The notes below the pieces were generated by a model. That model was given only the letters and a program-made list of their open reading frames with translations. It ran no database searches and was not told the DNA's origin. Shown here piece by piece: positions 1 to 62,834 of a stretch of 64,000 bases of DNA (the stretch's first letter is position 1; every line of letters starts with the position of its first letter). This DNA is from an uncultured Bacilli bacterium (GTDB lineage: Bacteria; Bacillota_I; Bacilli_A; RF39; UBA660). The stretch spans positions 196 through 64,195 of the forward strand of contig CANRIB010000005.1 in NCBI GenBank assembly GCA_947630575.1, written 5' to 3'. The position numbers and the translations under genes are program-made.

Positions 1-166
1 AAAACTGTCCGTAGCTAAGTTTCTCATTTTTATCTTTATATTTTAATCTTTATTTTAGTATTATTTATATAGCTATATTTTTAGCACTTACTAGTCGTAC
101 TTTTTATTCTTTTATCCCTTATAAACACTGGGTTTATTCAAAACTGTCCGTAGCTAAGATACTTCA

Positions 167-1684
167 TCATGATATTTTGTATGGATTATTTGATGCCCCT
201 GTTCCTGTAAATGTTATATCAGCCTTCAGATTTATTACTGGGCGCACACCCCTCGCGCCGTACACGCTGTTAGTGTAGAGGTAGCCATACGAATCCACAC
301 GGAACACGTAAGCATAGCCGTTACTGTCGAAGTAATACGGAGACATTGTCCAATAGTCTTTATTTGTACATAGCCAGTATTTATTATTACTTTGACCTGC
401 AAATCCTCCGGCAAATATTACTTCGTCACTTGTTATTAAGCCTACTGGATTTGTTAATTTCTTATTTCCTAATATTGTTGTTCCATCTTTTGTTGTCGCT
501 CCTTTTGAATTTTGTCCTGTAAACAAATCTCTTGTTGGATTTGAACATTTCAAAGTTGGTTCTTGTGTTTTATCTTCACTCGTATCTGAATTCCATACTC
601 TATGGACTGGTGCATATGCAGTTTGTCGTTTTGCATATCCTCCGTTGCCTTTTCCTAGATAACTTCCGTGGTTTTTATCTGCTAATTCTCTATCATTGCA
701 AAAGCCTGTGTCTATATCTATTTTTTCTACTATTCCTTGGCTTCCTAAATTTGTATTTGTCCACCATTTATCTAATTCTCCTTTTATTGTACTATCTTTT
801 GAATTTTGGTGTGCATCAGCATACTTACTTGTGCTACCACCATTGTTCATGAATCCTACATATGTATTATCATTGTAAGTTGCATTATATTGTTGAACAG
901 TTTTATCGTTAGTATATGTAGTTGTTATTTGAGTACCTGTACCTGTTGTTGCTGGAGCTGTTGTTCCTCCTGCAGTATTTGTTCCCGCATATATTAACCT
1001 TATTGTGCCATTTCCATTTATTCGGATGATTCTCCACCATATATCTTTTCCATTTTCTTGTCCAAATTTTACCCAGTTATTTTTATTATCATCTAATGTT
1101 CCTCTAAACACGTAACTAGTTCCAAAATCATCCTCTACACTATATACTCCATTTTCGGCCATATTATTATTTTGACTTCCACTATCATAACATATTCCCC
1201 CTTTATTTCCACTACAACTTGGTCCTGTTATATTTGCAGTCAATATTCCATCTGATTCTATTCCTAAATTAACTAAAGTATCTTCTGCTGTATGTTTTTC
1301 TTTTTTAAAATACAAAGTACATTTATCTCTTTTCTTTAGATTACTAAATGTATGATTACCATCTATTGTTTTTAATATTGCTTCTTCGTCTTCTTGGGTA
1401 TCGTCTATCATACATTTACTTTTATTTTCGTCTATTTCATAACCGGTAGTTGGTACACTTGTTGTTATTTCATATCTTCCATCATCATTTTCTTTTCGAA
1501 TTTCAACTATCGTAAAATCATATGGACTATATGATATATTACCATTAACTATAGATACACTTTTGGTTACTTGATATTTTGCTTTACTTACCATTAATAT
1601 TATTGTAAATAATAACAATACTAAAAATACAAAACAAATTATTATTTTAGTTCTTTTATTTCGCTCTATCTTCTTAAATTCCAT
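167..1684 (-). CDS. Membrane-anchored secreted protein, paralog A (divergent N-terminal half, conserved C-terminal lectin-like domain with hypervariable cassette)
   Basis: 505-aa ORF with N-terminal hydrophobic anchor IIICFVFLVLLLFTIILMV. The C-terminal ~330 aa closely match ORF 45484..47442 (WWRIIRINGNGTIRLIY, YVGFMNNGGSTS, DYWTMSPY...GVRPVINLKAD). The YW[ST]xSP...G[VF]RP[VA] pattern recalls DUF1566/DUF6273-type C-lectin-like domains (from memory, not searched). Confidence 0.8.
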   Translation of the reverse strand: MEFKKIERNKRTKIIICFVFLVLLLFTIILMVSKAKYQVTKSVSIVNGNISYSPYDFTIVEIRKENDDGRYEITTSVPTTGYEIDENKSKCMIDDTQEDEEAILKTIDGNHTFSNLKKRDKCTLYFKKEKHTAEDTLVNLGIESDGILTANITGPSCSGNKGGICYDSGSQNNNMAENGVYSVEDDFGTSYVFRGTLDDNKNNWVKFGQENGKDIWWRIIRINGNGTIRLIYAGTNTAGGTTAPATTGTGTQITTTYTNDKTVQQYNATYNDNTYVGFMNNGGSTSKYADAHQNSKDSTIKGELDKWWTNTNLGSQGIVEKIDIDTGFCNDRELADKNHGSYLGKGNGGYAKRQTAYAPVHRVWNSDTSEDKTQEPTLKCSNPTRDLFTGQNSKGATTKDGTTILGNKKLTNPVGLITSDEVIFAGGFAGQSNNKYWLCTNKDYWTMSPYYFDSNGYAYVFRVDSYGYLYTNSVYGARGVRPVINLKADITFTGTGASNNPYKIS

Positions 1685-1839
1685 GACTTTGATTCCTTCC
1701 TTATCAATTATATTAGAAATTCCTAACTTATATTAAAATTATAATATCTCATATACTAAAAGTCAAGAAAAAGTTTTTCATTTCAAACACTATATTTTGT
1801 ATATAAGCTTTAAATGAGAAAATTAGACTGGTGATTGTT

Positions 1840-2292
1840 ATGTATAATACTATAAATATTAAAAAGATTAGATTAAATAAAGGGAAAAATCAAAGTGAAG
1901 TTGCAGATTTAATGAATATAAGCAGGTCTACTTATGCTTTATGGGAAAGTAATAATAATATTTTTCCAATTGATAGATTAGTTGATTTTTGTAATGTTTT
2001 TAGTGTTTCGTTAGATTATGCTTTAAATTTAACAGATAAAGAATTAGTTATTAAAGCGCCAATTGATATAGATAAATCTAGTGCAAGATTAAAAGAATTT
2101 AGAAAAGAAAAAGGCTTAACACAAGAAAAATTAGCTATTTTTTTACAAACTAATAAATCAGTAATTTGTAATTATGAGAAAAAAAGAAGTATTCTGGCAA
2201 CCCCTTTTCTTTATATGATATGTGAGAAATATAAAATAAGCGCAGACTATTTAATGGGAAGAATAGATACTCCTAAATATTTAGACAAATAA
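1840..2292 (+). CDS. XRE-family transcriptional regulator with two tandem HTH domains
   Basis: Two Cro/C1-type HTH units (QSEVADLMNISRSTYALWES and QEKLAIFLQTNKSVICNYEK). Divergent from ORF 167..1684. ATG at 1840 follows a GGTGA Shine-Dalgarno (SD) that contains the GTG at 1831 used by the track. Confidence 0.8.
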   Translation: MYNTINIKKIRLNKGKNQSEVADLMNISRSTYALWESNNNIFPIDRLVDFCNVFSVSLDYALNLTDKELVIKAPIDIDKSSARLKEFRKEKGLTQEKLAIFLQTNKSVICNYEKKRSILATPFLYMICEKYKISADYLMGRIDTPKYLDK

Positions 2293-9580: not shown

Positions 9581-10819
9581 TTATATAAATATTACTTTTA
9601 AAAATACTTTTTTGCCTTTTTGAATTATTAAAGAATTACCACTTAAATTTTTTTCAGTAATTATTTGGTCAGAAGATTTTACTTTTTCTTGATTTATCGA
9701 AATACCATTTTGGTCAATAAGTCTTTTGGCTTCTGATTTTGATGAAGCTATTTTAGATTCTACAAGTAAATCTACAATATTAATATTTAGTATATTTTTA
9801 GATAATTCTATTGATGGCATATTATCGGATACTCCTTTGTTACTAAATAATTCTTCTGCAGTTTTTTGGGCTTTAAGGGCTTCTTCTTCTCCGTGGACTA
9901 ATTTTGTTACTTCAAAAGCAAGTATTTTTTTAGCTTGTCTAATATCTTTTTTACATAATTCTTTTATGGCTGATATTTCCATTCTGGTAAAGAAAGATAA
10001 ACTTCTTTCGACATCTTCATCAAAAGAATTTATCCAAGCTTGGTAAAAATCAAAAGCGCTTGTTTTATCTCTTGACACCCATAAAGTGCCTGTTGCAGTT
10101 TTGCCCATTTTTTCACCATCAGCTTTTATTAATAAAGGACAAGTGAGACCAAATAAGGGATCTATTTTCTTACCTTCACTATAACCAATTTTACGAGATA
10201 AATCAGCACCGGCTAGAATATTACCCCACTGGTCTGAGCCACCTATTTGAAGGCGACAACCATATTCTTTATTTAAGTGAACAAAATCAAAGGCTTGCAT
10301 TAACATATAACCCATTTCTAAAAATGTTAAACCACCATTTTCTAATCTTTTTTTATAACAATCAGCGGCGAGCATAGTATTTACATTAAAATGGACTCCA
10401 ATATCTCTCATAAAATCAACATAAGTTTTATTGCAGATCCAATCAGCATTATCAACAATAATGGCAGGATTATCTCCATCTGTTTTTACAAATCTTTTAA
10501 CTAATTCTTTAACTTCTTTTTTATTATGGGCTACCTCTTCTTTTGAAAGCATTTTTCGCATATTGCTTTTACCGGTAGGATCACCAATTAATGCGGTTGC
10601 ACCACCAATTAAAATAATGCCATGATGGCCAAAATCTTGAAGCCATCTAAACAAAGTTAGGGCAAAGAAATGGCCTATATGAAGACTATCGGCAGTTGGG
10701 TCTATTCCTAAGTAAAAGGTCATAGGTTCTCCATTAATTAAATCAATAATTTCTTTTTCGTGAGTTAAATCTTTTATATATCCTCTTTCTTTTAAAATAT
10801 CAAATAATTTTTTTTCCAT
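9581..10819 (-). CDS. tyrS: Tyrosine--tRNA ligase
   Basis: 412 aa with class I HIGH motif (LHIGHF), KMGKT (KMSKS-type) motif and C-terminal S4-like domain. GGAGGA SD lies 10 nt upstream of the ATG. Confidence 0.92.
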   Translation of the reverse strand: MEKKLFDILKERGYIKDLTHEKEIIDLINGEPMTFYLGIDPTADSLHIGHFFALTLFRWLQDFGHHGIILIGGATALIGDPTGKSNMRKMLSKEEVAHNKKEVKELVKRFVKTDGDNPAIIVDNADWICNKTYVDFMRDIGVHFNVNTMLAADCYKKRLENGGLTFLEMGYMLMQAFDFVHLNKEYGCRLQIGGSDQWGNILAGADLSRKIGYSEGKKIDPLFGLTCPLLIKADGEKMGKTATGTLWVSRDKTSAFDFYQAWINSFDEDVERSLSFFTRMEISAIKELCKKDIRQAKKILAFEVTKLVHGEEEALKAQKTAEELFSNKGVSDNMPSIELSKNILNINIVDLLVESKIASSKSEAKRLIDQNGISINQEKVKSSDQIITEKNLSGNSLIIQKGKKVFLKVIFI

Positions 10820-10920: not shown

Positions 10921-11135
10921 TAAAAAAAGAGTAAATCATCCAAAGGACGAATTACTCGTGGTACCACCTTTATTTGTAATAATAGCTTATTACCTCTTAT
11001 TGATAACGGATATTTATCCGATTAAAATCATCATTTGTAATTCATTATTTTAATTTTACTTGTTTGCACCAACCACAAGTTCTCTATAAATTATTTTAAA
11101 ATAATTACTTTGAATGAATCGCTTTTTAATTAATT
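10921..11135 (-). promoter_or_regulatory. T-box riboswitch leader, Tyr (UAC) specifier
   Basis: Minus strand shows AGAGA and AGUA elements, a GGUGCAA distal-loop-like motif, CCGUUA (F-box-like), candidate specifier GAAU-UAC-A at 11037..11039, T-box core AAAGGUGGUACCACGAG (plus-strand 10957..10973), then a terminator hairpin and U-run (about 10921..10965). Confidence 0.8.
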
Positions 11136-29114: not shown

Positions 29115-29954
29115 ATGGAAAAAAAGAATTTTAATTTAAAAAAAATATTTAAGAAATATAAATTGCCAATTATAATTGGGACAGTGGCAATAATTGTTTT
29201 AATTGCCCTTTTGGTAGTATTTTTAGTACTTAAGAAAGATGATAAAACTAATGATAATGATACTAATAATCAAGAAGCAATTAACTATGAAGAAGGCACC
29301 GAAGATTATTTTATGGATGATGTAAAAGAACCAGAAGAAACCCCTAATACTGGTAATGATTATTATGATTATATAAATATGCCTTTATCAAAAATAGATT
29401 TTAAAGAGTTAAAAAAGAAAAATAGTCAAACAGTAGCATTTTTAAAAGTTAATAATACAAATGTTAATTATCCTGTTGTTAAAGCTTCGAATAATGATTA
29501 TTATTTAACTCATGCTTATAATAAATCTTATAATAGTGCCGGTTGGGTATTTATGGATTATCGTAATAATGTTAATAATTTGGATTCAAATACTATTATA
29601 TATGGACATGGAAGTTTAAAGACGACAATGTTTGGGACTTTAAAAAATGTAGTTAAAAAAGATTGGTATACTAACCCAAGTAATATGACTATTACTTTAT
29701 TAACTGAAAATTATACTTTATATTGGAAAATATTCTCAATTTATACTGTACCGGATGAGGTTTATTATTTAATATCTAATTTTGGTTCAGACGAATCACA
29801 TCAACAATTTATTAATACAATGTTAAAGAGAAGTATTTATGATTTTGGAGAAAGTGTTAGTCTATCTGATAAAATGCTAACTTTATCTACATGCTATAAT
29901 AATCAATTAAGATTAGTTGTTCAAGCTAAGTTAGTTAAAAAAGTTGCTAGATAA
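29115..29954 (+). CDS. srtB: Class B sortase
   Basis: 279 aa with N-terminal TM, IIYGH catalytic His, TLSTC catalytic Cys and VVQAKL (Arg-position region). Layout is typical of SrtB. Confidence 0.8.
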   Translation: MEKKNFNLKKIFKKYKLPIIIGTVAIIVLIALLVVFLVLKKDDKTNDNDTNNQEAINYEEGTEDYFMDDVKEPEETPNTGNDYYDYINMPLSKIDFKELKKKNSQTVAFLKVNNTNVNYPVVKASNNDYYLTHAYNKSYNSAGWVFMDYRNNVNNLDSNTIIYGHGSLKTTMFGTLKNVVKKDWYTNPSNMTITLLTENYTLYWKIFSIYTVPDEVYYLISNFGSDESHQQFINTMLKRSIYDFGESVSLSDKMLTLSTCYNNQLRLVVQAKLVKKVAR

Positions 29955-30004: not shown

Positions 30005-30110
30005 AAAATTAAAAGAATAGAATATTTGGTTTATTCTATTCCTGTATTATGTTTGGGTAAAGGTAACCCAGAATCTTGTCTATTAATAATAAAGGATAAG
30101 CATAATAGAC
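30005..30110 (-). repeat. Structured ~100-nt element, copy 1 (two hairpins plus terminator hairpin)
   Basis: The ~75-nt core ctattcctgtattatgtttgggtaaaggtaacccagaatcttgtctatta...ataatagac is near-identical to 45393..45462. Minus-strand order: hairpin gtctatta/taatagac, hairpin tgggt/accca, then hairpin gaatagaat/attctattc followed by a U-run. Confidence 0.6.
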
Positions 30111-30147
30111 TGAAGTTGTCAATAAAAAGTAGACACTAAAAAAGTAA

Positions 30148-30405
30148 TTATTTAAAACGTTTTTTTAATTTAACAATTGTAAGTCCAGGATTAAATATAT
30201 CTACTTTAAAACTGTCTACTTGTTTATTTCTTTTTAATATTTCATGAACTTTGTTTTTTAATATGGTACTACTATAGCCATGAATTATACCAATATATTC
30301 ATTTTGTAATTTATAATTATCATTAATAAAATCATTTACAATAAATGTAACAGTATCTCTTGTTTCACCATGCAAATTTATGGTTGGAGATTTACTGTTG
30401 TACAT
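30148..30405 (-). CDS. Smr-domain protein
   Basis: 85 aa. INLHGETRD...IIHGYSSTILKNKVHEIL matches the Smr (MutS2 C-terminal) domain pattern. Its start overlaps the upstream PfkB gene by 14 nt. Confidence 0.7.
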   Translation of the reverse strand: MYNSKSPTINLHGETRDTVTFIVNDFINDNYKLQNEYIGIIHGYSSTILKNKVHEILKRNKQVDSFKVDIFNPGLTIVKLKKRFK

Positions 30406-31594
30406 TGTTGTTGGCCTCGATTACAGGAATCGTAGGAGTGGGATTTACTACAGGTGTTGGAGATACCGGAGTTGGGTTTGGATTTACAACGGGAGGTGTA
30501 GGATTTTGAGGATTAGAAACTGCTGGATTAGGAGTAGCACCAAAGAAAGAAGCACCTATATCATTAACATTATTAGTTGTTGTCATAGTTGGAATATTAA
30601 TATTTGCAGCATTAGGAATTTCTGGTAAAGCATCTGTGGTTGGAACTTTAACCTCTTCTTTAGGTTTTTCCTCTACTGGAGCTTTAATATTAAACTTTTG
30701 ATTATAATAATTTATTACTTCTTTAATAGATGGGATAGATGTACGACCTCCCATTTTAGTAACAGATAAACCCGCGGCGATATTCGCATAAGTAACAGCT
30801 TTTTCAATATCAAAGTTATTAGCTAGACAATATGCAAAAGCTCCATGGAAAATATCTCCAGAACAACTTGGGTCTACTTGAGTAACTTTAATACCTGGCA
30901 TAACTTTTATTTCACCATTAAAAGTATACATAGCACCCATATTTTCTAAAGTTACAATAATTTCATTATTAGGATATTTATCTTTTAATTTTTTATAAAC
31001 ATTTACTAAACTAGCAGAGTTATTATAGTCAATTTTTAAACCACTTACAGTTTCGGCAAATCCTTTAGAACACACGATATACTTAACATATTTACATAGT
31101 TCTAATAAATCCCTATCAACACGTCCAGCATCAACAATACTTATCGCATTAGGATACTTATTTAAAGCATTAATTGTGGCACTGTATTCTTTACCATCCG
31201 AAAATACAACATTAGGATTAATATTATATTCGTATTTTTTTAAATTTGGTTGGGTCGCACCAACAACATCAAAACGAGTACGAGTACCATTTTTTTTGTT
31301 GACTAAAATAATTGATAAAGGAGTTCCAGCTTCATAGGCAGTTTCTATAAATTCGGTTTTTACTAAAGCTTGTTCTAATTCTTTTTTGATTTTACTTCCA
31401 TAATCATCGGAACCAATAACACCGGCAAAATATGATTGTTCTCCCCATTTGCCTAAAAGATAAGCAACATTGGCAGCATTTCCACCGCCTGATTCGATTT
31501 TTTCATTTAATAAATACTTGGTTCCTTCAACAGGATATTCTTCAACAGGACATGTTATATCATAACTTGTTCTACCAATACTTAAGATAGTCAT
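30392..31594 (-). CDS. PfkB-family carbohydrate kinase with Pro/Thr/Asn-rich C-terminal tail
   Basis: The first ~300 aa look ribokinase-like (GGGNAANVAYLLGKWG, DPSCSGDIFHGAFAY, GGRTSIP). The last ~100 aa are low complexity (NPQNPTPPVVNPNPTPVSPTPVVNPTPTIP). Confidence 0.75.
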   Translation of the reverse strand: MTILSIGRTSYDITCPVEEYPVEGTKYLLNEKIESGGGNAANVAYLLGKWGEQSYFAGVIGSDDYGSKIKKELEQALVKTEFIETAYEAGTPLSIILVNKKNGTRTRFDVVGATQPNLKKYEYNINPNVVFSDGKEYSATINALNKYPNAISIVDAGRVDRDLLELCKYVKYIVCSKGFAETVSGLKIDYNNSASLVNVYKKLKDKYPNNEIIVTLENMGAMYTFNGEIKVMPGIKVTQVDPSCSGDIFHGAFAYCLANNFDIEKAVTYANIAAGLSVTKMGGRTSIPSIKEVINYYNQKFNIKAPVEEKPKEEVKVPTTDALPEIPNAANINIPTMTTTNNVNDIGASFFGATPNPAVSNPQNPTPPVVNPNPTPVSPTPVVNPTPTIPVIEANNNVQQ

Positions 31595-45363: not shown

Positions 45364-45465
45364 AAAAAACAAAAAAGAACAGAGATTAAACTCTATTCCG
45401 TATTATGTTTGGGTAAAGGTAACCCATAATCTTGTCTATTAATAAGGATAAGCATAATAGACAAG
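45364..45465 (-). repeat. Structured ~100-nt element, copy 2
   Basis: Same core as 30036..30110. An 11-bp stem cttgtctatta/taatagacaag, hairpin tgggt/accca, then a terminator-like hairpin gaacagag/ctctattc with a different sequence from copy 1 in the same position, followed by a U-run. Begins 19 nt after the stop of ORF 45484..47442. Confidence 0.6.
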
Positions 45466-45483: not shown

Positions 45484-47442
45484 TTATTGGACTATGTAAG
45501 GGTTAGAACTTGTTCCTATATCTTCTCCATCAGTGAAGGTAAATGCTGTATCGGCTTTTAGATTTATTACAGGACGGACACCTAACGTGTCGTTACCGTG
45601 GTCGTAGTAAAGCTGGCCAGTCGAAGACACATGGAATACGTCAGCCGCGCTACTGTAAAAGTCATACGGAGACATTGTCCAATAGGATGAATTTGTATAT
45701 AGCCAATATTTATTATTGTTTTGACGAAAAAATCCTCCGGCATATATTACTTCGTCACTTGTTATTAAGCCTACTGGATTTTTTAATTTTTTATTTCCTA
45801 TTATTGTTTTTCTGTCTTTTGTTGTTGCTCCTTTGGAATTTTGTCCGGTAAACAAATCTCTTGTTAAATTTGCACATTTTAAGGTTGGTTCTTGTGTTGA
45901 ATCCCAATTAGTACCTTCACTCCGCCATACCCGATGGACTGGAGCATATGCAGTTTGCTGTTTTGAATATCCTCCTTTGCTTTTTCCAAGATAACTTCCG
46001 TGGTCTTCGTCTGCTAATTCTCTGTCATTACAAAAACCTGTATCTACATCTATTTTATCTACAATATCAACACTTCCTAAATTTGTTTTCTCCCACCATT
46101 TATCTAATTCAGCTTTTATTGTACTATCACTTAAATTTTGATGTGCATCTGCGTAACTACTCGTACTGCCTCCATTGTTCATGAATCCTACATATGTATT
46201 ATCGTCGTAAGTTTCATTATATTTTTGAATAGTTGTATCGTCAGAATATGTAGTTGTTATTTGAGTGCCTATACCTGTTGTATCTGGAACAGTTGAACCT
46301 ATTCCAGAATATATTAATCTTATTGTTCCATTACCATTTATTCGGATGATTCTCCACCATATAGCTTTTCCGTCTTCTTGTCCAAACTTTACCCAATTAT
46401 TATCTACTGTTCCTCTAAATACATAACTAGTTCCAAAATCGTCTTCTGCACTATATACTCCGTTTTGATTCATATTTATAACAGAAGAACCACAGTTACT
46501 CCCTAAATCATCTTTACAGCTTGGCCCTGTTACTGTTGTTATTGTTCCAAGAGAATTTCCAAGTTTTAAATCAGCTAGCCTTTCTTCTGCAGTAAGTGTT
46601 GTATCTATATCAAAATATAAATAACAAGCTGTTCCACTTTTACTTACATTTGATAATATTATTTCATTATTCTCTATTCTTACTTTTACTTCTTCATTAT
46701 TACATTTTGTTTCTTTTTGATTTAATACATATCCCTCTTTGGGTATTTCTTCTACTTCTTCATATTTTCCTTCTTCCGTTTCTTGGTAAAATGCTACTAA
46801 GTTTATATCGGCTTTTGTATTACTTATCTCTCCATATACTCTTCCTTTAAATCCTTCTCCTATATCTTTACTTTGATTTCCACTATTTGGATATTCTACT
46901 ATGATATAATAATATTTCATTGTTCCTTCTTCTTTGGCTGTTATAAATTCTGTATTAGTTATTTTTATTGTTTGTTCTTCTGTTGTTTTTGGTATCTCTC
47001 CTTCATTTATTGGCTCTCCTAATTCTTCTATATTTGATGTACATACTTCATTTAATTGTTGGGCTCCATTTACTACTTTCTTTTTCTTTTCACAATTTAA
47101 GGTTATCTCTTTTTCTTCTTCTGATACATATACTTTATATTTTAAATTTGTATTTAAATTATTTGTTCCTATCCATGTTAAGTTATAAGCTATAAGTTCA
47201 TTATTACCTGTTGCAGTTGCTGTTACTTTAGATAGAGTTTGATGTCCTGGATATATATCTACATCACCAAACTCTATATTACCACTTATATCTAATGTTG
47301 AACCATTTACTGTTGCCGTTCTTCCTTCTGTTGTTGCTCCTGTTCCTTTAAAAATAGTTTTACCTACAAAATATGCTAAAGATACACCTATTCCTAATAT
47401 TAATACACTTAACAATATTATTACTCTTTTATTCTTTTTCAT
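45484..47442 (-). CDS. Membrane-anchored or secreted protein, paralog B (SipW/TasA-like signal region, Ig-like middle, conserved C-terminal lectin-like domain with hypervariable cassette)
   Basis: ATG at 47442 (MKKNKRVIILLSVLILGIGVSLAYFVGK) follows AAAGGTGAG. The LAYF motif recalls SipW-dependent signal peptides. The C-terminal ~330 aa are paralogous to ORF 167..1684. Confidence 0.8.
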   Translation of the reverse strand: MKKNKRVIILLSVLILGIGVSLAYFVGKTIFKGTGATTEGRTATVNGSTLDISGNIEFGDVDIYPGHQTLSKVTATATGNNELIAYNLTWIGTNNLNTNLKYKVYVSEEEKEITLNCEKKKKVVNGAQQLNEVCTSNIEELGEPINEGEIPKTTEEQTIKITNTEFITAKEEGTMKYYYIIVEYPNSGNQSKDIGEGFKGRVYGEISNTKADINLVAFYQETEEGKYEEVEEIPKEGYVLNQKETKCNNEEVKVRIENNEIILSNVSKSGTACYLYFDIDTTLTAEERLADLKLGNSLGTITTVTGPSCKDDLGSNCGSSVINMNQNGVYSAEDDFGTSYVFRGTVDNNWVKFGQEDGKAIWWRIIRINGNGTIRLIYSGIGSTVPDTTGIGTQITTTYSDDTTIQKYNETYDDNTYVGFMNNGGSTSSYADAHQNLSDSTIKAELDKWWEKTNLGSVDIVDKIDVDTGFCNDRELADEDHGSYLGKSKGGYSKQQTAYAPVHRVWRSEGTNWDSTQEPTLKCANLTRDLFTGQNSKGATTKDRKTIIGNKKLKNPVGLITSDEVIYAGGFFRQNNNKYWLYTNSSYWTMSPYDFYSSAADVFHVSSTGQLYYDHGNDTLGVRPVINLKADTAFTFTDGEDIGTSSNPYIVQ

Positions 47443-47567
47443 TATCTCACCTTTTACTATAGACAAATATGTCCCATATCATAATTATAGAATAACATAT
47501 TTGGGGCAAACTTGTCAATGGCTTATTGGGGCAAATTTGGTAATATTTTTATAGTGAGGTGCTAAAT

Positions 47568-50859: not shown

Positions 50860-51192
50860 ATATTCATAAGCCATGTTCTGTACCCATTTTGGGCGACAAA
50901 TATTTATCTACTAGTTTTCTAGTCCCTTACGCGATTCGTTTCTTTTGTAAGAGCTCTCCGACCATAATTTGGATTTCTCACTCGTGGGGTTTACCGCGTT
51001 CCATTTCCTCTGTTTCCAGATTATTCGTCACTATGGCACTTTATAAGTACTTAATCCTTGAGTTTCCTTTTAGGATTGTTCCTCGCCGTTAGATTTCTCT
51101 ACTTTAGGTTATTTTTTCCCTAAACACGAACATTAAAGTCAATCACAGACTTTGTGAGCATGGACTTTCCTCTACATAATTCTTATGCAGCA
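50860..51192 (-). ncRNA. rnpB: RNase P RNA (bacterial, compact ~330 nt)
   Basis: Minus strand contains AGAGGAAAGUCCAUGCUC (plus-strand 51160..51177), GGUAAACCCCACGAG, and GGGUACAGAACAUGGCUUAU (plus-strand 50865..50884). Candidate P1 pairing is CAUAAG/CUUAUG. Adjacent to gpsB as in Bacillus. Ends are approximate. Confidence 0.9.
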
Positions 51193-51204
51193 TTTGTCAC
51201 GATA

Positions 51205-51537
51205 TTATTCATATTTGCCAAAGACAACCTTTTCTAGTTGACTAATTCTTTTTAATAAATCGACATTAGATACGGTGGTAGTAGCACTGCTACTTGCTTC
51301 ACTGGCCACTAACTGTTCTCGTAAGTTTCTGATTTCCGCTTTAAGTTTGGAATTATCTTCTGTTAAATCTTTAATTTCCTTTTCATTCCTTTTGATGATA
51401 TTGATAAATTCGGTATAATCGCGTATAACCATGTCTAAGTATTTATCAACTTCTTGTGGTCGATAACCTCTGGCATCAATTTTAAACTCTTTATCAAGTA
51501 TTTCTTGAGGAGTTAAATAAATTTTGTCGTTATACAT
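51205..51537 (-). CDS. gpsB: Cell-cycle protein GpsB (DivIVA-domain)
   Basis: 110 aa. LTPQEILDKEFKIDARGYRPQEVDKYLDMVIRDY and C-terminal DLLKRISQLEKVVFG closely parallel B. subtilis GpsB. Confidence 0.85.
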   Translation of the reverse strand: MYNDKIYLTPQEILDKEFKIDARGYRPQEVDKYLDMVIRDYTEFINIIKRNEKEIKDLTEDNSKLKAEIRNLREQLVASEASSSATTTVSNVDLLKRISQLEKVVFGKYE

Positions 51538-57794: not shown

Positions 57795-60700
57795 TTAGAA
57801 ATCAAATAAACTTAATTGACTAGTTTCTGGTAGATTGCCAAATACCCCAAGAGAGCGAAGTTTATCTATGGTGGTAGCATTAACATGACCACGATTACCA
57901 AAATCTTCAATACTATAAAATGGTTTGATATTTCGTTCTTCAATTATTTTAGAAGCAACAGAATCCCCTAGTCCATCTAATGTTCTAAAAGGACAAATTA
58001 AAGTTTTTTTGTCTTCACCGATAATAAAGTTTTTGCCATCACTTTTTTCAATATCAATATTGCCAAATTTAAATCCACGAGCAGTAGCTTCAAGACAAAG
58101 TTTTAAAGTTTCTAAAACACTGGTTTCTTTATTAGTAGCGGAATAGCCTTTATTAATGATTTCATTCATTTTAGCTCTAATAGCATCATAACCTTTAATC
58201 ATTGTTTCTAAATCAAAATCATCAAATCTAGTAGAAAAATAGGTAGCGTAATAAACTTCAGGATGATGAACTTTAAAATAGGCAATGCGAAAAGCACTCA
58301 TAACATAGGCGGCCGCGTGGGCTTTAGGGAACATGTATTTAATTTTACCACAGGATTCAATAAACCAAGATTCAATGCCTGCATCTTCCATTTCTTTTTT
58401 GAATTTAGCCCAGCCTTCAGGGTCTTTGGAAGCTTTGCCTTTACGGACAAATTCCATGATTTTAAAGGCTTTGATAGGAGCCATGCCTTTATACATTAAA
58501 TATACCATGATATCATCACGACAACCTATAACATCACTAAATGGAACAACATTGTTACGAATTAATTCTTGAGCATTGCCTAACCAAACATCGGTACCGT
58601 GAGATAAACCAGATATTTTAATTAATTCGGCAAAAGTTTTAGGTTTAGTATCAACTAACATCCCAATAGTAAATGGTGTACCAAATTCAGGAACACCTAA
58701 GGTGCCAGTTTCATTCATGATTTGGTCTTTAGTAACACCTAGAGGTTCGGGAGATAAAAATATGCCCATTGTTTCTTTATCATCTAAAGGAACTGTTGTA
58801 ACATCGATACCCGAAATATCTTGAATCATACGAAGTTGAGTAGGATCAGTATGGCCTAAAATATCTAGTTTTAAAACATCTTGATCTATGGCATGGTAAT
58901 CAAAATGGGTGGTACGCCACGCAGCATCTATATCTTCAGCGGGATATTGGAAAGGCGTAAAATCAAAAACATCCATATAGCCCGGGATAACGACAATACC
59001 TCCAGGGTGTTGGCCAGTAGTTCTTTTAACGCCAGTACAACCCATCGCAAGACGTTCAACTTCAGCCCGATTAATAACGATTCCTTTTTGTTCAGCATAC
59101 CCTCTTACAAAACCACAGGCAGTTTTATCGGCAACTGTACCAATAGTTCCGGCACGGTAAACATTGTCAACACCAAATAATACTTTGGTATATTCATGAG
59201 CGGCAGCTTGATTTAAATCCGAAAAGTTTAAGTCTATATCTGGTACTTTATCAGCATTAAAGCCTAAGAAAGTGGCAAAAGGCATATCTTGACCATCTTT
59301 AGTCATTTTAGTACCACATTTAGGACATGTATAGTCAGGAAGATCAAAACCACTTTTATAGGTAGCTCCAAGAGGTTCACCATTTTCATCATTAAAGATA
59401 CTATGACGACAATTTTTGCAGCGATAATGAGGTGGCAAAGCATTAACTTCGGTAATTCCCATCATGGTAGCTACAAAACTGGAACCAACAGAACCACGAG
59501 AACCAACTAAAAAGCCATCATCATTACTCTTTTTAACTAATTTTTGTGCAATTAAGTAGATAACATCAAAGCCTCCACCAATAATTCCGCCTAAAGTTTT
59601 TTTGACTTTTTTATCAATATCTATTAAAGGGTCCGTTGCTTCTAATATTTTAAGTTCATTTTCACTGGCAGTTTTTTCTTCCCCTTCTAAACTGGCAATT
59701 TTAGTTTGTAATTCTTTAATATTATTTTCTTGTTCTTGTTTTAATTTTAAAATTAATTCTTCTTTTACGATTTCTTTTACAGCATCCATGCCCTTTAAAA
59801 TGGTTTCATGAAGAAGATGAAAAGCTTTAGTGGTTAGTTCATCTCCTTCTAAGCCTTCTTCTCTAATCAATTTAGTTTTGATACTATCTAAGACAGCATC
59901 ACCATATAATTCTTTAGATATTCTTTCTTCAATATTTAAAGGAAGAGGGTCGCCATACCAAGAAGCCGCTTTGGTATAAACTAAATCAGTAACAGTTTCA
60001 ATGGAGTTTTCGATTTTTGGGGAAAAAGGAACGCCGCCTGTTTGAATAATTACTTCTACTTCTTCAATCATGTCGGCAATTTTATTGGTATTTGTAACGA
60101 CAATTTCATAGGCTAAATCTTCACCTAAAAAGGCAAATTCTTCAAGCATTTCTTTAGTAGTTCGAAAATGCATATCGGGTTGGTCAACTCCCCTTTTATT
60201 TAAAGGATGAAGTTTTCCATTGGTTTTTTGAGCAATAATTATATCCCGATATATTTTATCTTGAGGTCGCAAATAATGAGCATCACTGGTCGCAACAACT
60301 ATTTTACCAGCACTTTTGGCAACTCGAATGATTTTCTTTAAGTGTTCTTCTAAATCTTCAACCGTGTGAAAACCACTTGATTCCATTTGTAGTAAATGTT
60401 TAAAAGCACTTATGGGTTGAACCTCAATATAATCATAAAATTGCATTAAGCCTCCAAGTTCTTCATCATCTTTAGTTTTGGCTTCTTCAAATATTTCCCC
60501 ATTGATACAACCACTGCCAATAAGAAGACCTTCACGAAGTTTTTTTAGTTCACCACGAGGTAATTTTGGTTCACTTCCGCGAAATAAATAAGTAGTATTA
60601 GCATAGGAAATTATTTTAAATAAATTTTTTAACCCGACTTTATTTTTAACTAAACAACATAAATGAAAAGGATAAGAGAATTTAATTAATTCATTTAAGT

Positions 60701-62834
60701 CAACAGAATTAAATAATTTGGTCGTTGTTTCAATATTACGGGCATCTAATTCTTCACACATTTTATGAAAGGCATGAGCAGTTCCTTCAGCATCATAATC
60801 GGCACGATGGTGCGCATCTTCATCCCATTCCACTTTGTAGCGTCTAGCTAAAGTCGTAAGTTTATGATTAGGCCATTCAGGATGGAGCATTCGGGCCATA
60901 CTCATAGTATCTAAAACTGTATTGGTAAATTCACCAAGATTATATTTAGCACAAGCGGCACTAATAAAACCAATATCAAATTTGGCATTATGGGCAACCA
61001 TTGGTAAATCCCCTGTCCAATCAAGAAATCTTTTGGTAACAACTTCTTCATTGTCATGACCTTTTAACATATCATCAGTAATATTTGTAAGTTCTGTTAT
61101 TTTCTCAGGGATAGGTCTTCCGGGGTCAATAAATTCATCAAAACAATCAATTACTTCTCCGGCTTTAATTTTGACAGCCCCAATTTCAATCATTTGGTCA
61201 CTTCCCACATAAAAACCGGTAGTTTCAGTATCAAATACTACATATTCTTGTTCTAATAAATTATATTCCCTTAAGTTATGAATAAAATCAATATCATCAT
61301 TTACAACATTTAATTCAGTGCCATAGATAACTTTAAAATGGTCTTCTTTTTCTTTGCCTTTATTAATACTATTTACGGCATGAAATAAATTAGGATAAGC
61401 TTGTAAGGCATTATGGTCAGTTACGGCGACAGCTTTATATCCTAGTCTGTTTGCAAAATCCACAATATTATTAGGGTCTTTTTCATCATTAGGAATTACT
61501 CCATCCATCATACTCATCATCGTATGAGTGTGTAATTCTACCCTTTTTACGGGGGCATCATCAATTATTTTTTCAATTTTAGGTTCAATTTTTTCTAAAT
61601 TCCAAATTTGAAAAACTAGTTCATTATCATAATTATCAAATTCAACATTACCATGAAATCTAAACCAATTTTTTTTCTTCGCAGCATCTTTTAACGCACT
61701 TTTAATTAAACCAAATTCTCTTTTGTTTTTCTTAAATATTTTGGCAAGCATACTACTAGTATTATCACTTATTTTTAGAGTCATAATATTAATATTATCT
61801 GTTTCTTTTAGCTCATCACCAAAAACATAAGCTTCAACAAGAACATTTTCCATAGCCCCAATTATATTAGTTATAGGAGTTATATTGCCTTCTTGATGTT
61901 CACCAATAATAACATTGGGATTGGCACTTTGAGAGATAATTATTTCTCTATTTTCTATTGCTTCTAAGTTTCTTACGCCTAAACTTAAACATTTAGAATA
62001 AGAATCAAAATCTACATTACCATTTAAGCGATACCAATTTTCTTCTTTTAAGATATTTTTTAAGGGTAAATATTCTTCTTTATCTTTTTTAAATATTTTA
62101 GCCATAATACTCTTATTGTTGTCATTAATAGATAAAGTAATAATATTAATATTATCTCTTTCTAAATAAGAAATAGATTCAATATACCCTTCAATAGTAA
62201 TATTTCTACCAATATTATTAATACTATTGATAGGTTGGAATTCTTTGGTAATATTTTTGCCCATGATAACTTCACCAGGCGTATATTCATGAATAACTTC
62301 TTTAAAAGTGGCAGGAGCTTGAACATCTTTTAAGACTTCTTCTACTTCTTTTTGTTTTTCTTCATTTAATTTAGTAGTAATATAATAATCTTTTAAACCT
62401 AAACTGGCTAGTATTCTATGAATATTATTTTCTTCTTTTTTAATTCTTTCTTCTTCGATATTACTTATTACTTCAAAAATAATAATATCATCATCAATAA
62501 GAGGTTTATTATCTAATAAACTAATTAAAGAAGGTTTTTCTTCAACTATTTTTTTAATAATCTCTTCAATATAAGTTAAAACATCTTCACTTGTTATATT
62601 ATCATAATTAATATATATATTACAATTATATAAACCATTTATTTTATATTTATTATTAATTAGTTTATTAATAATATTAAATGGTAATACTTGATTACTT
62701 TTTAAATAAACATTAAATGTTTCGGATTTTTTATTTAATACTACTTTTTCAATAATTACATCTTTTAGAATATTTTCTTCATCATTAAAATTAATACTTG
62801 TTAAAAAATTATTTATATCATGCATTATTTTCAC
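57795..62834 (-). CDS. polC: DNA polymerase III PolC-type, enlarged (1679 aa) with duplicated N-terminal OB domain
   Basis: PHP (VELHTHTMMS), DEDDh exonuclease (VVFDTETTG, HRADYDA), Zn finger (CKNC...CPKC) and Pol III alpha core. Two similar ~90-aa OB-like units at about aa 205-295 and 325-425. Confidence 0.95.
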   Translation of the reverse strand: MKIMHDINNFLTSINFNDEENILKDVIIEKVVLNKKSETFNVYLKSNQVLPFNIINKLINNKYKINGLYNCNIYINYDNITSEDVLTYIEEIIKKIVEEKPSLISLLDNKPLIDDDIIIFEVISNIEEERIKKEENNIHRILASLGLKDYYITTKLNEEKQKEVEEVLKDVQAPATFKEVIHEYTPGEVIMGKNITKEFQPINSINNIGRNITIEGYIESISYLERDNINIITLSINDNNKSIMAKIFKKDKEEYLPLKNILKEENWYRLNGNVDFDSYSKCLSLGVRNLEAIENREIIISQSANPNVIIGEHQEGNITPITNIIGAMENVLVEAYVFGDELKETDNINIMTLKISDNTSSMLAKIFKKNKREFGLIKSALKDAAKKKNWFRFHGNVEFDNYDNELVFQIWNLEKIEPKIEKIIDDAPVKRVELHTHTMMSMMDGVIPNDEKDPNNIVDFANRLGYKAVAVTDHNALQAYPNLFHAVNSINKGKEKEDHFKVIYGTELNVVNDDIDFIHNLREYNLLEQEYVVFDTETTGFYVGSDQMIEIGAVKIKAGEVIDCFDEFIDPGRPIPEKITELTNITDDMLKGHDNEEVVTKRFLDWTGDLPMVAHNAKFDIGFISAACAKYNLGEFTNTVLDTMSMARMLHPEWPNHKLTTLARRYKVEWDEDAHHRADYDAEGTAHAFHKMCEELDARNIETTTKLFNSVDLNELIKFSYPFHLCCLVKNKVGLKNLFKIISYANTTYLFRGSEPKLPRGELKKLREGLLIGSGCINGEIFEEAKTKDDEELGGLMQFYDYIEVQPISAFKHLLQMESSGFHTVEDLEEHLKKIIRVAKSAGKIVVATSDAHYLRPQDKIYRDIIIAQKTNGKLHPLNKRGVDQPDMHFRTTKEMLEEFAFLGEDLAYEIVVTNTNKIADMIEEVEVIIQTGGVPFSPKIENSIETVTDLVYTKAASWYGDPLPLNIEERISKELYGDAVLDSIKTKLIREEGLEGDELTTKAFHLLHETILKGMDAVKEIVKEELILKLKQEQENNIKELQTKIASLEGEEKTASENELKILEATDPLIDIDKKVKKTLGGIIGGGFDVIYLIAQKLVKKSNDDGFLVGSRGSVGSSFVATMMGITEVNALPPHYRCKNCRHSIFNDENGEPLGATYKSGFDLPDYTCPKCGTKMTKDGQDMPFATFLGFNADKVPDIDLNFSDLNQAAAHEYTKVLFGVDNVYRAGTIGTVADKTACGFVRGYAEQKGIVINRAEVERLAMGCTGVKRTTGQHPGGIVVIPGYMDVFDFTPFQYPAEDIDAAWRTTHFDYHAIDQDVLKLDILGHTDPTQLRMIQDISGIDVTTVPLDDKETMGIFLSPEPLGVTKDQIMNETGTLGVPEFGTPFTIGMLVDTKPKTFAELIKISGLSHGTDVWLGNAQELIRNNVVPFSDVIGCRDDIMVYLMYKGMAPIKAFKIMEFVRKGKASKDPEGWAKFKKEMEDAGIESWFIESCGKIKYMFPKAHAAAYVMSAFRIAYFKVHHPEVYYATYFSTRFDDFDLETMIKGYDAIRAKMNEIINKGYSATNKETSVLETLKLCLEATARGFKFGNIDIEKSDGKNFIIGEDKKTLICPFRTLDGLGDSVASKIIEERNIKPFYSIEDFGNRGHVNATTIDKLRSLGVFGNLPETSQLSLFDF

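Follow-up and report, generated by a model that had tools for sequence, protein, structure and literature searches.

Why should about thirty codons near the end of one gene be GC-rich and hypervariable when the surrounding DNA is AT-rich, and are these codons still being rewritten? The question is raised by a 64,000-nucleotide stretch of DNA from an uncultured Bacilli bacterium (GTDB lineage RF39, UBA660; GenBank assembly GCA_947630575.1, contig CANRIB010000005.1, positions 196 to 64,195), which we refer to as the window. It carries two paralogous genes, A and B, each with such a cassette. The first-pass annotation, made from the sequence alone, regarded both cassettes as variable regions (VRs) of a diversity-generating retroelement (DGR). 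In a DGR, a reverse transcriptase (RT) rewrites a segment of a gene from a template RNA. On balance, we lean towards the following answer for B: its VR is that of a DGR target, was templated in the past and is most likely retired and drifting. The VR of A, on the other hand, still looks like a freshly templated one.

Two paralogs with a GC-rich hypervariable cassette

Both genes, together with the segments considered here, lie on the minus strand of the window:

45484..47442, minus strand: paralog B gene, 652 aa from the ATG at 47442 (the open reading frame extends to a TTG at 47466)
45571..45675, minus strand: VR of B, the full stretch homologous to the template repeat, ATG TCT CCG ... GGT GTC CGT CCT
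45571..45663, minus strand: the flagged hypervariable cassette of B, 31 codons, in frame, 49/93 = 52.7% GC
45571..45582, minus strand: 3′ GC-rich end of the VR of B, GGTGTCCGTCCT, the predicted site of homology between cDNA and target
167..1684, minus strand: paralog A gene, 505 aa, the reference counterpart
239..346, minus strand: VR of A, whose 3′ end (239..250) is exactly GGTGTGCGCCCA
239..337, minus strand: cassette of A, 53/99 = 53.5% GC

The two proteins both start with a hydrophobic N-terminal segment and have about 350 C-terminal residues in common. In B, the N-terminal hydrophobic anchor is joined by a conserved domain in the centre of the protein, and the VR is part of a DUF6273-like domain at the C-terminus. 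The cassettes occupy the same frame between shared flanks (ATG TCT CCG TAT upstream and GTA ATA AAT CTx AAx GCx GAT downstream). After the VF[RH]V motif both cassettes run for 19 codons up to a Pro, and A has one extra codon upstream of it. These features had been described correctly at first pass, and all the codon pairs listed there (GAT/TCT, TAT/ACT, AAC/GAC, AGC/CAC, TAC/AAC, GGC/GAC and GCG/ACG) are present in the sequence. The GC content of about 52% given for the cassette of B, counted by hand as 47 of 90 nt, likewise agrees with the full count shown above.

The cassettes stand out from their surroundings in composition, in divergence and in the pattern of substitutions. The window has a GC content of about 28% (90-nt windows across the 64 kb: mean 0.28, sd 0.069), and the two cassettes, at 0.52–0.57, are among its highest-GC 90-nt windows. 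Third-position GC is 0.15 in the flanks of both genes, as opposed to 0.78 in the cassette of A and 0.63 in that of B. According to the repeat comparison within the window, A and B share 84–85% DNA identity over about 570 nt of flanking sequence and only 70% within the cassette. In the last 150 flank codons the differences between A and B are distributed over the three codon positions as 20/19/33, whereas in 27 cassette codons the distribution is 12/10/8, a reversal of the usual third-position excess. This contrast between cassette and flank exceeds chance.

Template repeats in related genomes

Comparison of the VRs by blastn with loci fetched from relatives turned up non-genic copies of the segment, often as tandem repeats with a ~300-nt period. 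There are five such copies at locus L022 and two each at L030, L038, L052 and L167. In total, loci from metagenome-assembled genomes (MAGs) and a metagenome scan with the junction motif gave 54 template repeat (TR) units. An nhmmer search of the window with the TR-unit model matched the VR of B at 45677..45572 (model positions 32–143, E 6e-10).

Every TR for which an in-frame reading was possible is Asn-rich, as exemplified by SPYNFNSNNNNANVFYVNSDGNLNNTNVNNTNGLRP. Read in the frame of the protein, a TR gives, for example, MRSPNNYNGGAVVFRVDNNGNLNNTGVNNTNTGVRP and afterwards departs from the gene (ISFYN... versus VINLK...). In the TR consensus (...AAT TCG AAT GGC AAC CTC AAC AAC AAC AAC GTG AAT AAC ACG AAT GGT GTG CGC CCA) the variable codons are AAY, which give access to many amino acids and to no stops, as is characteristic of DGRs. 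The proposal that the cassettes are DGR-type VRs derived from AAY template codons is therefore backed by the relatives, which hold Asn-rich, non-coding TRs of exactly this segment.

The pattern of mismatches between VRs and TRs within single genomes supports this as well. The cognate pair at L038 differs at 1/74 non-A positions and at 16/37 A positions, while several pairs in the MAG Lapin-030__bin19 differ at about 4/73 non-A and 17–18/35 A positions. Such A-specific mismatch between TR and VR is the defining signature of a DGR, and the family is DGR-templated in related genomes.

The templates are diverse. Lapin-030__bin19 has at least 8 different TRs, and TRs come in two length classes, with either 10 residues (YNFNSNGNAN) or 9 residues (YNFNGSNAN) before VF; both classes occur side by side at L052 and L167. 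Paralog A fits the 10-residue class, while B and a third paralog, C (see below), fit the 9-residue class. The difference of one codon between A and B can thus be attributed to TR length classes that differ upstream. The first-pass annotation had argued that a single TR could not yield both paralogs without an indel; this holds, and the genomes of relatives do contain several TRs differing in upstream length.

Some further genes were noticed around the TRs. Genes of the PD-(D/E)XK nuclease family (Rpn/transposase-like) are located in or beside TR arrays at L022 (7152–8090, minus strand) and L038 (2797–3318, plus strand). The final ~1.1 kb of L022 encodes, on the minus strand, a group-II-intron-type RT (QGGNLSP, YADD), which shares the contig with the TR array and is not of the DGR type. 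Small Asn-rich, TR-like open reading frames (P0276, P0312, P0339 and P0342), one of which is labelled Candidatus Saccharibacteria, have other tails (..GVRPALS..), with FWLLSP or WWLRSP ahead. DUF1566/DUF6273-type targets of other phyla may thus have related templates.

Departure of the variable regions from the template consensus

In the consensus of 50 TRs from relatives, 48 columns count as conserved non-A (non-A in 85% or more of the TRs) and 28 as A columns (A in 70% or more). Among 58 pooled VRs, changes affect 6.0% of the conserved non-A columns compared with 48.4% of the A columns. The VR of A is changed in none of the 48 non-A columns and in 13 of the 28 A columns (Fisher p=2e-7); for the VR of B the corresponding counts are 8/48 and 14/28 (Fisher p=0.0025). 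A count of this kind had been suggested at first pass, and its expectation that changes would fall mainly at template A is borne out for both cassettes, the eight non-A changes of B being the part that does not fit. B is not a clean counterpart of A: with eight changes at conserved non-A positions, B is more likely a drifting former target. In the load of non-A changes it ranks 54th of the 58 VRs.

The location and nature of these changes point in the same direction. In the part of the alignment that has a fixed length (39 non-A columns), all 50 TRs deviate at 3 positions or fewer, and the VR of A at none, compared with 7 for the VR of B. Four of the seven changes in B are synonymous and in the third codon position (GTG>GTA, CTC>CTT, GTG>GTC and CGC>CGT). 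The final 12 nt of B, GGTGTCCGTCCT, differ from the TR-type GGTGTGCGCCCA at 3/12 positions, all of them synonymous third positions: GTG>GTC and CGC>CGT at non-A sites, and CCA>CCT at a template-A site. The TR-type 12-mer is present without a change in 44 of the 50 TRs and in 31 of the 58 VRs, including that of A, and within it G.T.TGCGCC is kept by 49 of the 50 TRs. Furthermore, across VRs the number of mismatches in the 12-mer correlates with that of non-A mismatches upstream (rho 0.42, p=0.001). The 3′ GC-rich stretch is predicted, by analogy, to act like the GC part of the initiation of mutagenic homing (IMH) site, and it is this IMH-like homology that the VR of B fails to preserve in full.

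We therefore read B as written by a DGR because its changes relative to the TR consensus are biased towards A, and as retired because it has accumulated substitutions at positions that a template would reset, including three in the 3′ GC-rich homology. Judged solely by deviation from a cross-species consensus, retirement is the most likely state of B.

Paralog C (locus L166), found in a metagenome sample that also has gene A, offers a useful comparison. The fixed codons of its VR are, by inspection, of the TR type, and the 3′ 12-mer is exact. Most differences between A and C affect the first and second positions of AAY-type codons, with two third-position exceptions. In the family as a whole, roughly every second paralog seems to be in register with templates; the remainder, B included, look as if they are drifting.

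Template units as structured RNA genes

The TR units have the appearance of small genes. A −10-like hexamer is present in 41 of 42 units, typically 6–9 nt before a conserved leader, GGTTAATCT, and a T-run follows 120–185 nt 3′ of the TR, again in 41 of 42 units. RNAalifold, applied to 41 units, predicts base pairing between the leader and AGATTAATC, 3′ of the TR, so that the TR is enclosed in a loop. It also predicts a UAUCCU/AGGAUA helix around a hairpin directly after the TR, and then a two-part 3′ helix. In the predicted pairs 97.8% of the alignment cells are standard, compared with 34–45% when the partners are slid by 1–3 columns, and 24 pairs are changed on both sides as against 5–7 in the slid controls. 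None of 500 shuffles reached the observed pairing values. Sequences and a single-sequence fold additionally indicate a short stem-loop and an A-rich stretch after the 3′ strand of the duplex. In these units a dedicated leader takes the place of the avd coding sequence as the upstream strand, as would be required of a TR gene that stands alone.

No Rfam family covers the TR units. A generic promoter and terminator scan found 24 promoter-like sites where 19.6 were expected and was uninformative in DNA this rich in AT.

A chromosomal reverse transcriptase locus in relatives

In the MAG Lapin-028__bin40, a family gene (locus L004) is followed, some 2 kb downstream, by three adjacent genes that encode an MSL protein, a bAvd-like protein and an RT:

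L004, gene 1: 140-aa MutS_I-domain (MSL) protein
L004, gene 2: 117-aa bAvd-like protein
L004, gene 3: 370-aa RT (RVT_1, E 3e-23) with the motif GLPIGNMTSQ...YVRYMDDFVIF

This RT has more than 100 cluster representatives with 76–88% identity, whereas the targets are only 40–60% identical. Its neighbourhood has the same composition in three genomes (L161–L164 for one RT, L165 and L004): LysM, MYG1-like, MSL, Avd, RT and DUF378. The surrounding genes in L161–L165 are housekeeping genes, with PheRS, FtsEX, TilS and FtsH at L161–L164. Searches with the TR-unit model, blastn with the VRs and direct reading found no TR beside MSL-Avd-RT in L004, and the TR-unit model found neither a TR unit nor a VR within 10 kb of the RT in L161–L165. 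The TR junction motif had a single match, by chance, in 2.9 million viral contigs. Since the RT locus is syntenic and the junction motif has no real viral match, the system appears to reside on the chromosome and to be inherited vertically, its RT, templates and targets lying apart from one another.

A possible trace of a broken system was seen at L046 (11529–12752, UMGS1172). There, an MSL (MutS_I) remnant just 3′ of a family gene lies next to an insertion-sequence-type open reading frame with no Avd or RT following, and it may represent a disrupted DGR core.

Searches for the template and enzyme of this genome

The window was searched for the same components in several ways. A gapless scan forgiving any mismatch at template A returned poly-A noise only. 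Blastn with 85 VRs and nhmmer with models of the TR unit and of its 3′ domain (E up to 10) recovered only the two VRs, and a repeat search found only the two cassettes and no further copy of the segment. No RT-like open reading frame emerged from a six-frame scan of the window for YxDD or from tblastn with the RT, Avd and MSL of L004, and the RT neighbourhood that is syntenic among relatives is not in the window.

Two candidates for an RT in the window were rejected. A YFMDD at 29310 sits in a sortase, and the open reading frame at 30392..31594, near a repeated element, resembles by eye a PfkB-type sugar kinase. The latter (minus strand) has a C-terminal tail of about 90 residues rich in Pro, Asn and Thr and forms another GC-rich spot of the window. 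Another open reading frame, at 57795–62834 (minus strand, 1,679 aa), has internal direct repeats of about 360 nt (61624–61806 and 61993–62163) and GC-rich patches, and is unrelated to the VR model.

Outside the window, look-ups of the exact proteins of A, B and a neighbouring gene led only to short contigs that break at gene A, and for B and P0243 there was no record. The cognate TR is not among the 54 TR units or among 120 TR-like small open reading frames, the closest of the 54 units to the VR of A having 8 non-A mismatches and 3 gaps. A profile search with TR peptides produced 282 small open reading frames, none of them cognate. The two tandem TRs of L167, whose sample accession is near those of gene A's samples, have 10 non-A mismatches to A.

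Interpretation and alternative explanations

How might such a system work? We propose that autonomous RNA genes of about 280 nt carry the Asn-codon-rich TR, each giving a transcript that would start near GGUUAAUCU, and that in this RNA the TR would be enclosed by the duplex between the leader and the 3′ domain together with the downstream stem-loops. The TR RNAs would be used in trans by RT-Avd from a separate chromosomal MSL-Avd-RT locus. The RT would synthesize self-primed cDNA from the TR with misincorporation opposite template adenines, and this cDNA would replace the VR in the C-terminal lectin-like (DUF6273) domain of the many membrane-anchored surface proteins of the family by means of the GC-rich 3′ homology. 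Each replacement would randomise the AAY-templated codons and reset all other bases to the TR. B, having lost part of the 3′ homology and drifted at template-fixed sites, would be rewritten no longer or only rarely.

The template signature, the bias towards A, the RNA structure and the RT locus are all observed in relatives, and we infer that this genome has the same machinery elsewhere. A broader picture, which we hold with belief and doubt in about equal measure, is that this lineage of small-genome gut Bacilli runs a distributed, multiplexed DGR. It would consist of one inherited MSL-Avd-RT locus, several standalone TR-RNA genes with their own promoter, duplex and terminator, and at least 20 scattered targets. 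Paralogs would join or leave the set of targets as their 3′ homology is kept (as in A) or lost (as in B), and the window would hold one live and one retired target.

Several observations weigh against this interpretation. The 64-kb window has no TR, Avd or RT, and neither the genome's own RT nor its cognate TR has been seen, so that the comparison of A and non-A positions uses the TRs of other species. Of the first-pass view of the cassettes as TR-templated, then, the relatives' TRs uphold one part, while the search for a template or an enzyme in the window, and for the cognate TR beyond it, came back empty. There is also no direct sign of ongoing diversification, even for VRs that look live. 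Alleles of A (P0242) and of C (P0243 versus P0002), taken from other assemblies, show a handful of residue differences elsewhere and have identical VRs, in a very small sample; no ortholog allele pair with differing VRs was found among the sampled loci, and there is no second allele of B on record. In addition, over the full 48 columns, 3 of the 50 TRs deviate at 7–9 positions, mostly in the length-variable part, and a TR sharing the 7–8 changes of B would make B a live target. In testable respects, the cassette fits the VR of a DGR target except for the unseen cognate TR and RT and the failed 3′ homology in B.

The alternative that fares best is that the VR of B is a live target of its own divergent TR carrying GTA, CTT, GGT and GTC CGT CCT (GTCCGTCCT). 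Genomes of this lineage have several TRs, at least 8 in the case of Lapin-030__bin19, and there are TRs specific to the length class of B, that of 9 residues. TR sampling covered the flanks of family genes alone, and many TRs are thus unseen. The significant A-bias that B retains (14/28 versus 8/48) would be expected of a live target as well. However, such a template would have to be unlike any in the sample: none of the 50 TRs exceeds 3 deviations in the 39 fixed-length non-A columns, where B has 7, and G.T.TGCGCC is kept in 49 of them. The deviations of B are largely synonymous third-position changes, as drift predicts. Moreover, mismatches at the 3′ end and non-A mismatches upstream go together across VRs, which fits decay and not private templates. 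We regard a private template for B as possible but doubtful, and retirement remains the reading we prefer.

Could the cassette have arisen with no retroelement at all, as an exposed loop under ordinary diversifying selection whose composition reflects amino-acid preference? The absence of RT and TR from the window and the identity of VRs between the sampled strain alleles would agree with this. Yet selection on the protein cannot explain third-position GC of 0.63–0.78 next to flanks at 0.15, the cross-species conservation of synonymous sites in fixed codons, the non-coding Asn-codon copies or the A-specific mismatches, and the TR units of relatives contradict it directly, which makes it very unlikely. 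Gene conversion from silent cassettes (of the pilS/vls/MgPar type), with the non-coding copies as donors and not RT templates, is scarcely credible: tandem non-expressed partial copies do adjoin expressed family genes, with PD-(D/E)XK nuclease-family genes beside two of the arrays, but donor cassettes would pass on their sequence unchanged, whereas here differences are almost only at A (1/74 versus 16/37), the copies are near-uniform in their Asn codons and form no diverse repertoire such as donor cassettes have, each is set in a structured RNA that is conserved and carries a −10 box and a T-run, and the lineage does have an RT of the DGR type, together with Avd and MSL.

Protein family and fold

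Paralog A has more than 1,800 homologues, and the segment from YWTMSP to GVRPVINLK is hypervariable in 120 of 120 listed homologues, being rich in N, S, Y, D, G, F and H. The 85 VRs of the family have a mean GC content of 45%, and their loci 27.5%. With one genome per species scanned, the hosts are uncultured gut Bacilli, 'Tenericutes' and Mycoplasma sp. CAG-type MAGs, some of which, such as Lapin-028__bin40 and Lapin-030__bin19, have 18–19 family loci.

At the C-terminus, Pfam DUF6273 is detected with E 0.004–0.008, a score that falls short of the curated cut-off. Modelled with AlphaFold2, the last 360 aa of B reach a predicted local distance difference test (pLDDT) score of 94.7, and a Foldseek search of BFVD with the model of B returned phage DUF6273 proteins (E ~7e-5 to 1e-3). 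The same fold search against the PDB gave nothing significant, the weak list consisting mostly of C-type lectin domains. In an earlier description, DUF6273 is C-type-lectin-like and bears the VR in phage DGR targets (PMC10743442). More than 1,800 'hypothetical' proteins could be annotated as DGR-diversified surface ligand-binding proteins.

As to the lineage, an RNA search of the window pointed to ordinary Bacilli-type features: a T-box leader (upstream of tyrosyl-tRNA synthetase, 9581..10819) and an RNase P RNA of class B, at 10940–11131 and 50864–51205, both on the minus strand. RNase P of class B fits the lineage of the family.

Downstream elements and a putative regulator

Paralogs A and B are followed by different non-coding elements, and A has a divergent regulator gene:

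106..158, restarting at 1..19 (139-nt period), minus strand: dsA, ~53-nt non-coding element CTTAGCTACGGACAGTTTTGAATAAACCCAGTG..., after gene A
45398..45465, minus strand: dsB, a 12-bp hairpin (CUUGUCUAUUA...UAAUAGACAAG; z = −3.7) and a small hairpin, directly 3′ of the stop codon of B
30035..30115, minus strand: second copy of dsB, 92–98% identical, between the sortase and an Smr-like gene and not beside a family gene
1831..2292, plus strand: XRE-type regulator with two helix-turn-helix (HTH) domains, divergent from paralog A

The element dsA is found 88–94% identical 3′ of the family genes of other species, even where the proteins are only ~40–60% identical. Copies occur at L001 (2117–2308), L166 (6529–6580), L016, L018, L025 and L037, always with a contig end close by. 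It has no stable RNA fold. In the six scored cases dsA follows VRs with 0–1 mismatches to the consensus, and it also follows paralog C, which looks templated. Copies of dsB are 83–89% identical 3′ of family genes in Lapin-028__bin40 (L002, L011, L012, L065 and L076), and those scored, B included, follow VRs with 3–9 non-A mismatches. Candidate roles for dsA and dsB are terminators, mobile repeats or cis signals that choose which paralogs are rewritten. The Smr-like gene near the second copy of dsB (30148..30405) was recognized by eye.

An XRE-type HTH gene also lies divergently upstream of family genes in relatives, at L022 (9392–9841), L030 (9288–9731), L046 (9246–9722) and L166 (4203–4418). 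At L052 (8788–9846) there are two in tandem, and paralog B has none alongside. The XRE-type HTH gene may regulate these surface-protein genes.

Comparison with known systems

Taken by itself, the flagged cassette is one more DGR VR, probably a decaying relic; its value lies in the system to which it led. Many elements of that system are already known. Multiple remote targets, two or more TRs, MSL and DUF6273 targets have all been described (PMC5758913, PMC6642488, PMC11661182, PMC10743442). In the open-access literature, we found no description of tandem autonomous TR-RNA genes set apart from the RT and serving at least 20 paralogous targets in this lineage, and nothing on a DGR in RF39, Tenericutes or Mollicutes.

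The closest parallels are with the DGR of Bordetella phage BPP-1 (mtd VR, avd-TR-brt). In both cases the VR is at the 3′ end of a gene for a ligand-binding protein, the TR has AAY codons, mismatches are A-specific and the homology between VR and TR ends in a GC-rich stretch. The resemblance extends to the RNA. In the Bordetella phage, a duplex between the upstream (avd) strand and Sp, followed by a stem-loop and adenosines, constitutes the 'cPRT Stop', and Avd binds a stem-loop directly 3′ of the TR (bioRxiv 10.1101/2023.10.23.563531). Similar RNA elements were predicted in 207 of 278 Avd-type DGRs in the same study (bioRxiv 10.1101/2023.10.23.563531). In the TR units described here, too, a long-range duplex brackets the TR; a stem-loop and adenosines come after the duplex, and a further stem-loop lies immediately 3′ of the TR. 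The differences are equally clear. The BPP-1 system is borne by a phage, whereas the present one is cellular, and the upstream strand of the duplex is the end of avd in the former and a dedicated short leader in the latter. Here the TRs are separate transcription units, several per genome, with none found within ~10 kb of an RT, and the targets are at least 20 scattered paralogs.

The RT locus itself resembles DGR 'architecture D', defined by MSL and avd and including the DGR of Legionella pneumophila (Wu et al. 2018, PMC5758913): a small MutS_I-domain protein, bAvd and RT are encoded in that order. In that classification, however, the TR is treated as part of the cassette (PMC5758913), whereas here there is none beside L004 or the L161–L165 block.

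Dispersed or multiple components have precedents as well. The Treponema denticola DGR (TvpA) has up to seven remote targets, that of Stenotrophomonas sp. SKA14 has two TRs and six to eight tandem targets, and two or more TRs have been reported for Stenotrophomonas and 53 MAG DGRs (PMC5758913, PMC6642488, PMC11661182). With these, the system of the gut Bacilli shares one RT for many paralogous targets, some of them remote, and more than one TR; it differs in scale, with at least 18–19 family loci in individual MAGs, one of which has at least 8 TRs. Phage DUF6273 targets of DGRs ('tentaclins', Faecalibacterium prophage; PMC10743442, PMC11792537) have the same type of VR-bearing domain. They are tail proteins, whereas the present targets are chromosomal, membrane-anchored and equipped with a large conserved central domain of their own.

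This arrangement has practical consequences. In this lineage, DGR finders whose searches depend on RT, TR and VR lying near one another would probably overlook most of the system. Templated (A and C) and drifting (B) paralogs appear to coexist in one population, as A and B are on one contig and A and C in one metagenome sample, and they provide a natural comparison of the features that are kept and lost. If our interpretation is true, a single RT-Avd complex would be programmed in trans by interchangeable small RNAs, which is relevant to re-targeting DGRs for directed evolution.

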